A DNA stretch of 23,043 bases from the IMG/VR virus record IMGVR_UViG_3300045988_132558, positions 1-23,043 of that record; one strand, 5' to 3'. Source of the stretch: a virus. Its lineage: Duplodnaviria; Heunggongvirae; Uroviricota; Caudoviricetes. This document shows, one piece after another, positions 8,538 through 23,043 of the stretch. Below the pieces are notes generated by a model. It was not told the origin of the DNA. It saw only the letters and a list, made by a program, of their open reading frames with translations, and ran no database searches. Made by a program: the position numbers and the translations under genes. The stretch's first letter is position 1. The number at the start of each line of letters is the position of its first letter.

Positions 8538-9104
8538 ATGGCAAGTCAGGCTGAGGTCGCAGCACATTTACTGCTATCTGATCGTCGTCTGCGCGATCTT
8601 GCAAAACTTCCGGGAGCTCCAGTCCCCCAAGGACGTGGCGATTGGGAACTTGACGCATGGCGCCATTTTTATATTCGTTATCTCCGGAGCAATAGACGCG
8701 ACACAACTAGTAATGACGAACCGGAAGCGGGGGACAATTCTCCCGAAAAAAATCGCGAGCAGTGGCTGAAAAATGAGGAACGACAGGAGCGAATCCTGAT
8801 GGCACGAGTAAAACGCCGCATTCTCGCTAAACGCTACGCGCCAATTGAATTAATTAGCGTCGCTGTATCTCGCGTCGCCGTTGAATTACGTACCCGCGTC
8901 GAGTCGTGGCCACCACGATTGAAAAAGGTGTGGCCTGAAATGCCGCAGGAGGCGAGCAGTGTATTACGAGAGGAGCTGGCGATAGCCCTGAATGAACTGG
9001 CAGACATACGAGTCGACTTCAGCGATTACGATGTCAGCGATATCGAACGCGATCTCGACAGGGTTGAATCCCTTGCGCGTGACGATACCGATGACGGGGG
9101 TTGA
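8538..9104 (+). CDS. Terminase small subunit, lambda Nu1-like, 188 aa
   Basis: ORF track 8538..9104 (+). N-terminal winged-HTH-like region (RLRDLAKLPGAPVPQGRGDWELDAWRHFYIRYL) comparable to the Nu1 N-terminus; immediately upstream of and overlapping the gpA-like gene; Shine-Dalgarno GGTGAGGA. Confidence 0.6.
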   Translation: MASQAEVAAHLLLSDRRLRDLAKLPGAPVPQGRGDWELDAWRHFYIRYLRSNRRDTTSNDEPEAGDNSPEKNREQWLKNEERQERILMARVKRRILAKRYAPIELISVAVSRVAVELRTRVESWPPRLKKVWPEMPQEASSVLREELAIALNELADIRVDFSDYDVSDIERDLDRVESLARDDTDDGG

Positions 9105-10953
9105 GTGGGCTGATAAATATTTTTATCTCCCTGAGGGCTCCAGCCACATCGCTGGCCACTGGACGACTCAGCCGGTCCAGGTAGTGATGCTCAATATGAT
9201 GACTAACGACGCGATAAAAATCGTGTCTGTTCGCAAATCAGCTCGTCTCGGTTATACAAAAATACTCGTCGCGGCGCTGCTCTATTTCGCTGAGCACAAA
9301 AAACGTAGTGCCGTGGTCTATCAGCCTATTGATGACGAATCGGATGGATTTGTCGCCGACGAGGTTGACCCCGCTATCGCCGAAATGCCGGTGATTCAGA
9401 AAATTTTCCCCGACTGGGATAAAAGCAACGAGCGTAACAATCTCCAGCGTAAAGAAATGAACGGCGCGATTATTGATTTTCGCGGCGCGAGTACGCCAGG
9501 AAATTTCCGGCGACTAACGAAACAGGTTGTCGAGGGTGACGAAGTTGACGGCTGGCCGCTGGAAGTTGCCAAAAAAGGCAAAGGCGAGGGCTCGCCCATC
9601 GAACTGGCGCTCGTTCGAATTAAAGGGGCAGCGTACCCGAAGGCGATTTTCGGTTCGACACCGACAGTCACCGGTAAAAGTCATATCGAAATGTTGGAAG
9701 ACGCTGCTGATCTGACATTTCGTTTTTACCTGAAGTGTCCGCATTGTAGCGAGGAGCAGACCCTGGTATTTGGTTTCGACGGTATCGAATACGGTCTCAA
9801 GTGGGATGACAGCCTGCAGACCAACGAGTCGAAATCGTCGTCCGCGTATTACCAGTGCTGCCACTGCCCGGAGCATTTTTACTATCGCGATCTCGAAAAA
9901 ATGGAGCTCGGGGGGCGCTGGATAGCAGAGGACTGCACCTGGACGCGGGACGGCATTCATTTTTTTGATCACGACGGTGGCGTCGTTCGCGCGCCGAAAC
10001 ACGCGGCGATCGTGATAAACGCCCTGTATTCACTGAATCTCGACGGCTGGGGCGAGATTGTCAGCGAGTGGCTGAAAGCGAAAGGCGATCCGCTCAAAGA
10101 GAAGACGTTTCATAACACGACGCTCGGCGAACTCTGGAGCGACGTGGCCAGCGAGCAGCTGGAGCACGATATTCTCGTTAATCGCCGGGAACAATATGCC
10201 AGCCAGGTTCCTGACGGTGTTGTTTATATAACCGGCGGCATCGACTCTCAAACGTCCGGGCGCTACGAGTGTTACGTGTGGGGCTGGGGAGCGGAGGAAG
10301 AGTGCTGGCTGATTGATAAAACAATCGTCCTCGGTCGCTACGACGAGGAGGACACACTGCAGCGTGTTGATGGTGTTATTCGCAAACAATATCGGCGCAG
10401 TGACGGGACCACAATCGGCGTCAGTCGCTGGGCGTGGGATACCGGCGGCATAGATGCGCAGGTCGTTTATAACCGCTCGCTGAAACTCGGTCCGCTGTGG
10501 GTCATCCCAATTAAAGGCGCGAGCTCATACGGCCAGCCAGTCGTTAATATGCCGCGTACACGTAACGCGAATAAAGTTTATTTGTCGTTAATCGGTACTG
10601 ATACGGCAAAAGACCTGCTCGCGATGCGTCTGCCGCTGGAACCCGATTCTAAATCGGCGACACCAGGTGCGATTCATTTTCCCAACGACGTCGAAATATT
10701 CGGCACAACAGAGGCAAAACAGCTCGTTTCTGAAGTTCTGATCCCGAAACTGATTAACGGTCGCGTCGTTTATCGCTGGGACAACCAGGGCCGGCGAAAT
10801 GAGGCGCTCGACTGCTGGGTGTACGGGCTGGCAGCGCTGCGTATCAGTAAAATTCGTTTCCAGCTCAATCTCGAGACGCTCGCTGAGCAACGGAAAAAAT
10901 CACAAAACAAACTGTCTCTCGAGGAGATGGCCAGAATGCTCGGAGGGAGCTAA
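8992..10953 (+). CDS. Terminase large subunit, lambda gpA-like
   Basis: Long collinear similarity to lambda gpA as I recall it (VEWADKYFYLPEG, VKSARLGYTKIL, TPGNFR, CPHCSEEQ, GIDSQ...YECYVWGWG, VIPIKGAS, IGTDTAKD, RRNEALDCWVYGLAALRI). Start uncertain: the frame is open from within the Nu1-like gene and the ATGs at 8992, 9031 and 9091 all lack a clear Shine-Dalgarno sequence. Confidence 0.9.
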   Translation: MNWQTYESTSAITMSAISNAISTGLNPLRVTIPMTGVEWADKYFYLPEGSSHIAGHWTTQPVQVVMLNMMTNDAIKIVSVRKSARLGYTKILVAALLYFAEHKKRSAVVYQPIDDESDGFVADEVDPAIAEMPVIQKIFPDWDKSNERNNLQRKEMNGAIIDFRGASTPGNFRRLTKQVVEGDEVDGWPLEVAKKGKGEGSPIELALVRIKGAAYPKAIFGSTPTVTGKSHIEMLEDAADLTFRFYLKCPHCSEEQTLVFGFDGIEYGLKWDDSLQTNESKSSSAYYQCCHCPEHFYYRDLEKMELGGRWIAEDCTWTRDGIHFFDHDGGVVRAPKHAAIVINALYSLNLDGWGEIVSEWLKAKGDPLKEKTFHNTTLGELWSDVASEQLEHDILVNRREQYASQVPDGVVYITGGIDSQTSGRYECYVWGWGAEEECWLIDKTIVLGRYDEEDTLQRVDGVIRKQYRRSDGTTIGVSRWAWDTGGIDAQVVYNRSLKLGPLWVIPIKGASSYGQPVVNMPRTRNANKVYLSLIGTDTAKDLLAMRLPLEPDSKSATPGAIHFPNDVEIFGTTEAKQLVSEVLIPKLINGRVVYRWDNQGRRNEALDCWVYGLAALRISKIRFQLNLETLAEQRKKSQNKLSLEEMARMLGGS

Positions 10954-11186
10954 TGACGTCGCGCGAGGTTTTAACAGAACGGCTGCTGGAAGCCGAAATC
11001 GCCCTGCACAAACTATTAACAGGTAAATCAACCGTTTCGCTGTCTCACGGCGATTCAGCAGGAAATAACCGGAGCTATCAGTACTCCCAGGCGAGTATTG
11101 AGCAGCTCCGAACGTACATCATCGAGCTGAAATCACAGCTCGGTCTGAGTACGGGACGCCGCCGTCCCGTGGGAGTTCGATTATGA
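10953..11186 (+). CDS. Head-tail joining protein, lambda gpW-like, 77 aa
   Basis: Size, position between terminase and portal, and similarity to lambda W (LHKLLTGK..., C-terminal RRRP.G). Confidence 0.7.
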   Translation: MTSREVLTERLLEAEIALHKLLTGKSTVSLSHGDSAGNNRSYQYSQASIEQLRTYIIELKSQLGLSTGRRRPVGVRL

Positions 11187-22989: not shown

Positions 22990-23006
22990 TAATTCGGAGA
23001 GTAAAT

Positions 23007-23043
23007 ATGTCAGATAGCAACGCTTACCGCGCGTTTGCGCTAT
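23007..23043 (+). CDS. Start of putative tail tube gene (truncated by window end)
   Basis: ATG at 23007 preceded by GGAGAG; frame open to the window end (MSDSNAYRAFAL...); position right after the sheath gene. Confidence 0.35.
   Translation, partial: MSDSNAYRAFAL

Follow-up and report, generated by a model that had tools for sequence, protein, structure and literature searches.

We examined a 23,043-nucleotide stretch of DNA (positions 1 to 23,043 of the IMG/VR virus record IMGVR_UViG_3300045988_132558, Caudoviricetes), referred to below as the window at its full length, with a focus on the block of virion structural genes between position 8538 and its end. The list of open reading frames (ORFs) shows an unbroken plus-strand run over this block. 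All 19 structural ORFs are intact and lie on that single strand, with neighbors that abut or share a few bases; every ORF named in a preliminary description of this DNA was recovered whole at the coordinates given there. Upstream of the block, a Q antiterminator, holins and an endolysin are present and likewise intact. The block itself consists of two modules: a set of lambda-type cos-packaging and head genes running from the small terminase through FII (8538-16309), and a set of contractile-tail genes of the P2 and R-pyocin kind running from a Z-like protein through the tail tube (from 16341 to beyond the window end).

To identify these genes, window proteins were compared by BLASTP with those of phage lambda (J02459) and phage P2 (AF063097), alongside searches against protein family profiles. 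The head module opens, in the position of lambda Nu1, with a gene for the terminase small subunit (8538-9104), which matched PHROG 57 ('terminase small subunit', 1.8e-39) and is 44-46% identical to the small terminases of Aeromonas phage vB_AhyM_UALMA_PCAh2 (PCAh2) and Vibrio telomere phage Valp1. This protein gave no Pfam match at E ≤ 0.01, and its BLASTP similarity to lambda Nu1 was marginal (E 0.016 over 51 amino acids). The next gene encodes a gpA-type terminase large subunit (8992-10953, with an uncertain start codon), which carries both the ATPase and nuclease signatures (PF05876 GpA_ATPase, 1e-45; PF20454 GpA_nuclease, 3.5e-63) and shares 42% identity with lambda A over 645 amino acids (E 6e-169). 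It is followed by the gpW head-tail adaptor (10953-11186; PF02831 gpW, 6e-16; 35% identical to lambda W), a portal of the lambda gpB family (11183-12754; PF05136 Phage_portal_2, 7.6e-91; 63% to lambda B), a gpC-type S49 head protease and scaffold (12754-14061; PF01343 Peptidase_S49, 3e-38; 56% to lambda C), the head decoration protein gpD (14061-14390; PF02924 HDPD, 2e-8; 40% to lambda D) and the major capsid protein gpE (14450-15484; PF03864 Phage_cap_E, 7e-60; 57% to lambda E). The Pfam matches of the portal, gpC, gpD and gpE all lie above the gathering score, and the four genes stand in lambda order. The DNA-packaging chaperone gpFI (15519-15932; PF14000 Packaging_FI, 2.6e-9; PHROG 92, 6e-30) is 46% identical to lambda FI over its N-terminal 41 amino acids only. 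The last head gene encodes the head-closure protein gpFII, or Hc1 (15929-16309), which was recognized by profile only (PF05354 Phage_attach, 4.7e-10; PHROG 82 'head closure Hc1', 8e-24) and had no BLASTP match to lambda FII.

The head module shares with lambda the gene order Nu1-A-W-B-C-D-E-FI-FII, with A, W, B, C, D and E being 35-63% identical. The two differ in the small terminase, which Pfam does not detectably place in the Nu1 family, and in FII, which is detectable at the profile level only. The assignment of these genes to a lambda-type head and packaging module in the preliminary description, which had reported sequence matches for A, B, C and E, was borne out by the Pfam and PHROG families and by BLASTP against lambda—with W and D now matching in sequence as well. 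Beyond the head, nothing in the window corresponds to lambda U, V, G, T, H, M, L, K, I and J, and a gpZ-like gene is the only one held in common with the lambda tail region.

From position 17535 onward, the genes follow the tail of P2. The first encodes the baseplate hub and spike gpV (17535-18440), identified by PF04717 Phage_base_V (3e-12) and by TIGR01644 phage_P2_V (4e-30), the latter being the sole addition contributed by NCBIfam. Its 36% identity with P2 V is limited to the first 118 amino acids, beyond which the protein continues into a longer, non-P2 C-terminus. Three baseplate genes come next: the gpW/gp25 wedge protein (18443-18784; PF04965 GPW_gp25, 8e-16; 38% to P2 W), the gpJ wedge protein (18781-19701; PF04865 Baseplate_J, 4.5e-21; 41% to P2 J) and gpI (19698-20315; PF09684 Tail_P2_I, 1.5e-37; 35% to P2 I). 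A short tail fiber gene (20322-21239) combines a P2 H-type N-terminal collar domain (PF12571 Phage_tail_fib, 2e-31, residues 4-143; 33% identity to P2 H over the N-terminal 125 amino acids) with a variable C-terminus. In the position of P2 G lies an 80-amino-acid ORF (21247-21487), annotated as hypothetical in RefSeq, for which a fiber-chaperone role may be proposed from its position only. It had no Pfam match and no BLASTP similarity to P2 G, and it matched the N-terminal parts of PHROG 1795 and PHROG 1141, both of which are described as 'tail fiber protein'. A minus-strand ORF (21456-22064, 202 amino acids) was also considered as a candidate for G and rejected, as it had no family match and its tblastn matches mirror the sheath gene—the pattern of an antisense shadow. 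The tail sheath gene (21484-22989; PF04984 Phage_sheath_1 and PF17482 Phage_sheath_1C; PHROG 23, 1e-106) encodes a protein with an extra, variable N-terminal domain, and its residues 159-496 are 35% identical to P2 FI. Finally, the start of the tail tube gene (23008-23043), cut by the window end, encodes MSDSNAYRAFAL, the same N-terminus as that of the tube protein in the prophage of E. coli strain YZMc3-1.

The tail module and P2 thus have in common V-W-J-I-fiber followed by sheath and tube, at 33-41% identity. The order V-W-J-I-H-G-FI proposed in the preliminary description holds for V, W, J, I, the N-terminus of H, and FI; it fails for G, since the 80-amino-acid ORF is unlike P2 G. Further differences from P2 are an N-terminal extension of about 120 amino acids in the sheath, a longer C-terminus in V and the lack of a recognizable counterpart of G. 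The P2 tail-completion genes R and S are absent, with no BLASTP match and no detectable relationship to either neck gene, and their position is occupied by a Z-like protein and a protein resembling the R-pyocin collar PA0615. No window protein matched the P2 head genes Q, P, O, N, M and L in BLASTP, and the prophage is therefore not a member of the Peduoviridae.

Several parts of the tail module vary. The V spike measures 301 amino acids, compared with 211 in P2, the alignment with P2 being limited to the first 118-129 residues, and the G+C fraction falls to 0.42 at 18001-19000 compared with 0.52-0.59 in neighboring genes. The longer, P2-unlike C-terminus, together with the low G+C content around it, suggests that the C-terminal part of V (17900-18440) is a separately acquired spike tip. 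The segment 20825-21487, covering the C-terminal half of the fiber gene and the 80-amino-acid ORF, is replaced in close relatives; Escherichia phage vB_EcoM-705R4 (705R4), for instance, has a 394-amino-acid fiber and a 129-amino-acid ORF. This replacement is a typical receptor-binding cassette exchange. Likewise, DNA-level conservation is lost at 21598-22239 (sheath residues ~40-250) in 705R4, in Escherichia whittamii and in several IMG/VR relatives, with both flanks being conserved, and the extra N-terminal domain of the sheath looks like a swappable surface domain. The fiber C-terminus, the small ORF and the sheath insertion domain of 705R4 all differ from those of the window.

Between the two sets of readily recognized genes lie the neck genes 16341-17021 and 17018-17554, neither of which has a Pfam or NCBIfam match. 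The product of the first matched PHROG 27 ('tail completion or Neck1 protein', 7e-42), and its homologs in isolated phages carry the annotation Neck1 or minor tail protein Z. Pfam Minor_tail_Z (PF06763) was matched by 3 of 27 homologs (best 2e-12); these three are the most distant ones, at 37-38% identity to the window protein. An AlphaFold2 model (mean predicted local distance difference test score, pLDDT, of 80) found BFVD matches named 'minor tail protein' and 'tail component', whereas a sequence search of the PDB returned nothing and the family profile returned chance matches only. On this family-level and transitive evidence, 16341-17021 would encode a gpZ-like Neck1 protein, the first gene on the tail side.

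The evidence on the second neck gene (17018-17554) converges on a tail terminator. The protein matched PHROG 1072, a family of unknown function, and a single-sequence search of the PDB pointed to the R2 pyocin collar PA0615, full-length but weakly (E 0.016). The match strengthened as the query profile grew: a profile built from 11 close homologs reached PA0615 at 4e-4 and, once 125 family members had been collected from 1.8 billion representatives by a full HMMER search, a 61-sequence profile matched PA0615 (6U5F) over its full length at E 3e-32. The AlphaFold2 model (pLDDT 90.5) led in the same direction, with the best Foldseek matches being the pyocin collar in its pre- and post-contraction states, the Mu terminator, lambda gpU, T4 gp15, the diffocin collar and other tail terminators (6u5f, 6u5j, 9khy, 8iyd, 3fzb and 4huh at the top, each with a probability of 1.00). 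Comparison of the family with P2 R, P2 S and lambda gpU by hhalign was not significant (below 1% for R and S)—weak tests, as the targets were single sequences. Judged by profile and predicted fold, the product of 17018-17554 is a tail terminator of the pyocin-collar/gpU type, expected to cap both tube and sheath, as its kind does in R-type pyocins, and to receive FII.

In lambda, FII docks on a gpU hexamer. Since the terminator of the window has the predicted gpU fold, no special adaptor would be needed to place a lambda-type head on a contractile tail. By analogy, we infer that the neck is a standard chain of portal, gpW, FII, Z-like Neck1 protein and terminator, with no bespoke adaptor in it. 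The preliminary description had singled out the two neck genes as the least recognizable of the region and as those that must adapt an FII-type connector to a sheath-and-tube tail. They were indeed the hardest to recognize, as the lack of Pfam and NCBIfam matches shows; the special adaptor role gives way to a Z-like protein and a terminator that would rely on generic FII-terminator docking.

A block of this composition could also be read as two distinct elements, a lambdoid prophage lacking a tail and, beside it, a separate tailocin cluster of the P2-like kind. R-type pyocin and tailocin loci open with a PA0615-type collar gene directly followed by V, and the terminator of the window is homologous to the PA0615 collar of the Pseudomonas aeruginosa R-type pyocin. 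Yet no gap, regulator, lysis cassette or attachment (att) site separates FII from the tail genes, which overlap by 4-20 bases, and the Z-like gene connects the two halves. Neither lambda-type tail genes nor a second head module occur in the window, and the identical arrangement is found in phages packaged as one genome, PCAh2 and Valp1. We regard two independent elements as next to impossible and keep to a single structural operon.

Indeed, PCAh2 and Valp1, both isolated phages, have the same 20-gene order as the window and its relatives: small terminase, gpA, gpW, portal, gpC-type protease, a D-sized gene, gpE-type capsid, FI, FII/Hc1, Neck1 and terminator, followed by V, W, J, I, fiber, sheath, tube, tape measure, U, X and D. 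Their hosts differ from that of the window prophage, and their proteins are 34-59% (head) and 26-52% (tail) identical to those of the window, the PCAh2 tail being far more divergent than the PCAh2 head. Valp1 differs further in that it is a linear plasmid prophage with a protelomerase and carries extra PAAR-type genes after V. Its particles, seen by transmission electron microscopy (TEM), have heads of 60 nm and contractile tails of 90 nm and are those of a myovirus (PMC11054321). Hc1, Neck1, terminator and P2-like tail also occur together in the Jilinvirus ECO1230-10, Citrobacter phage Chris1 and VP882, where they stand behind a protease-capsid fusion. The Iiscvirinae/Jilinvirus group (ECO1230-10, ep3, HeidiAbel) and Hapunavirus (VP882, phiHAP-1) share the gpA terminase and the lambda-family portal with the window; their capsid protein, however, is the protease-capsid fusion, in contrast to the separate gpC, gpD and gpE of the window. 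ECO1230-10 Orf22 belongs to the terminator family (hhalign 99.96%). HeidiAbel, a genus-mate of ECO1230-10, is a myovirus by TEM (PMC11990801), and Lavigne et al. (2009) described the P2 homology of the VP882/phiHAP-1 group as lying in the V and F tail operons only (PMC2771037). A myovirus morphotype is predicted for the window prophage from its genes, contractile tails having been seen only on the syntenic relative Valp1 and the more distant HeidiAbel.

These comparisons also bear on how the mosaic arose. The nearest named relatives change from part to part: lambda and PCAh2 for the head, Valp1 and PCAh2 for the terminase, and Chris1, Valp1 and ECO1230-10—before P2—for the tail. A recent hybrid of coliphage lambda (or a close lambdoid phage) and P2 (or a Peduoviridae prophage) within Escherichia has two points in its favor, namely that lambda and P2 both infect E. 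coli and that the head proteins are nearest to lambda among named phages. Such a hybrid is nevertheless highly improbable, and in practice already refuted: identity is just 35-63% to lambda and 33-41% to P2; nucleotide similarity is absent for P2 and confined to part of gene E (~64%) for lambda; the tail is nearer to Chris1, Valp1 and ECO1230-10 than to P2, with P2 R/S and G not found; and Vibrio and Aeromonas phages already have the gene order in full. The mosaicism is real but stays within this supergroup of phages, and the window prophage represents a lineage and not a one-off hybrid. The joining of a lambda-type capsid to a P2/R-pyocin-like contractile tail is, by gene content, a genuine combination of co-adapted modules.

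The module boundary itself was located by comparison with 21 IMG/VR relatives, most of which keep the C/D/E head. One of them, L025 (IMGVR_UViG_2529293142_000021, 2182-16540), has a near-identical tail (V 89%, J 89%, I 90% and sheath 80%) on a Gifsy-type head, in which the small terminase is of the DUF1441 type, the capsid protein is a ClpP-capsid fusion, a cement protein is present and FII is divergent. The L025 genes for the large terminase and the Z-like protein are each divided over two frames. In L025 and a second relative, L023, protein identity to the window is 34-38% in FII and steps up to 63-69% in the Z-like gene, and nucleotide similarity to L025 starts at window position 16875. The same tail on another head, together with this identity step, places the module joint at the boundary between FII and the Z-like gene, so that the neck genes travel with the tail. 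The joint thereby coincides with the end that the preliminary description had given for the head module (16309). Whether the FII/Z-like boundary (16309-16341) is a preferred exchange point, through which the tail module has been placed onto at least two head lineages of enterobacterial prophages (the lambda C/D/E type and the Gifsy-type ClpP-capsid fusion), we consider an even bet. If it is, the FII-terminator interface would tolerate FII rings that are only 34-38% identical, and gpZ-type proteins would move and function with the tail, not the head, a point relevant to gpZ, whose role is poorly understood.

We also examined the distribution of the block in Escherichia. Among 5426 complete E. 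coli genomes, 458 carry the structural block; at least 80% of it is present in 442 of them, always on the chromosome. The best E. coli match (98%) is the YZMc3-1 prophage, located next to yodB/zinT, whose operon runs on through tube, assembly chaperone, tape measure, U, X, D and, after gpD, a second fiber. The same prophage lies near yodB/zinT in E. coli SE11 and E24377A, with the same genes in the same order and 92-98% nucleotide identity over the block. The window is also ~92% identical to four GenBank records, Escherichia phages vB_EcoM-705R4 (ON470624), -720R5, -569R10 and -783R5; the sole paper naming vB_EcoM-705R4 that a literature search returned concerns spacers of clustered regularly interspaced short palindromic repeats (CRISPR). 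A scan of GTDB species representatives found a single locus, in E. whittamii, which says little on host range. The lambda-head/P2-like-tail combination is already known from sequenced and electron-microscoped phages, and represents an ordinary prophage type, although a phrase search of the literature for 'lambda-like head' and 'P2-like tail' found no paper. The novelty implied earlier for such a particle does not survive the GenBank phage records, the 8% of complete E. coli genomes that carry the block, or the TEM of the syntenic Valp1.

Taken together, these data lead us to read the DNA from 8538 to the window end as one contiguous late operon of a lambdoid temperate Escherichia prophage, encoding a complete two-module virion, and we assign this reading a probability of roughly 85%. 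A number of observations weigh against it. Particles of this exact prophage have not been observed, and the vB_EcoM records look like predicted prophage regions, the host gene yecA forming the end of one of them. The window stops short of the remaining tail genes, and the assignments of the small terminase and of the 80-amino-acid ORF are weak or positional. The model of the Z-like protein found no solved structural counterpart (Foldseek gave chance matches only), and its family aligned with lambda gpZ at an hhalign probability below 1%, a weak test with a single sequence as target. In the YZMc3-1 prophage (L002), moreover, the portal (19646-21218) and gpI (28171-28796) are frameshifted in RefSeq; some copies of the prophage are probably defective or decaying.

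These frameshifts in the closest E. coli relative, along with the split Z-like gene of L025 and the fact that the integrase, immunity region and distal tail genes are not shown in the window, raise the prospect that the present copy is itself a defective remnant—a cryptic element, or a tail-only, tailocin-like source, with genes that look complete but yield no infectious particles. We judge this unlikely in view of the 19 of 19 intact structural ORFs, the intact Q antiterminator, holins and endolysin upstream, and the near full-length module in 442 genomes. We thus favor a complete virion operon, and infer that the present copy would produce particles through the following pathway. Heads would be filled from a cos site and then closed, by gpW followed by the FII ring. 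Tails would grow on the baseplate until a terminator hexamer halts the growth of tube and sheath, upon which the FII ring would dock on the terminator ring, as lambda FII does on gpU. In relatives the tail module continues with E/E', tape measure, U, X and D. The predicted particle is a myovirus with a lambda-like capsid decorated with gpD.

The prophage offers a textbook case of modular phage evolution, and the value of the analysis lies mainly in correct annotation. Annotations can be supplied for the two 'hypothetical' genes that hundreds of E. coli genomes carry: a gpZ-like neck protein and a tail terminator. The prophage is best classed as a lambdoid myovirus, neither lambda-like (a siphovirus) nor P2-like (Peduoviridae), and typing tools that use a single marker will err on it. 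Furthermore, the presence of the same tail on different heads in close relatives provides a natural system in which to study how much variation FII-terminator docking tolerates.

Directly upstream of the small terminase gene, the ~360-bp stretch 8175-8537 holds no ORF but shows ~95% mean column identity across three relatives, which is about the level of conservation found in coding sequence. It has a G+C-rich core (GAGCCCCCGATTCC...CCCCCCTGGTCGCGGGTCC), and its position matches the location of cos in lambda. The lambda cosN sequence is not present in it: a search returned chance-level matches only, the nearest (two mismatches) falling at 8554-8565, within the terminase gene. From its conservation and position, 8175-8537 is a probable cos site.

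Other features of the window lie further upstream. At 31-519 on the minus strand is a gene for an ImmA/IrrE metallopeptidase (Pfam Peptidase_M78; PADLOC CapP model, 2e-25), after which ~2 kb (760-2708) are private to the window and hold ORFs of unknown function (PHROG 17809 and PHROG 5176). A 1.15-kb segment between the lysis cassette and the cos/terminase region (6710-7865) is absent from the closest relatives, YZMc3-1 having ~40 bp there. Its ORFs (6842-7090, which matched PHROG 16949, of unknown function; 7084-7404; and 7164-7634 on the minus strand) had no Pfam or PADLOC match, and the segment may be a moron or cargo insertion.

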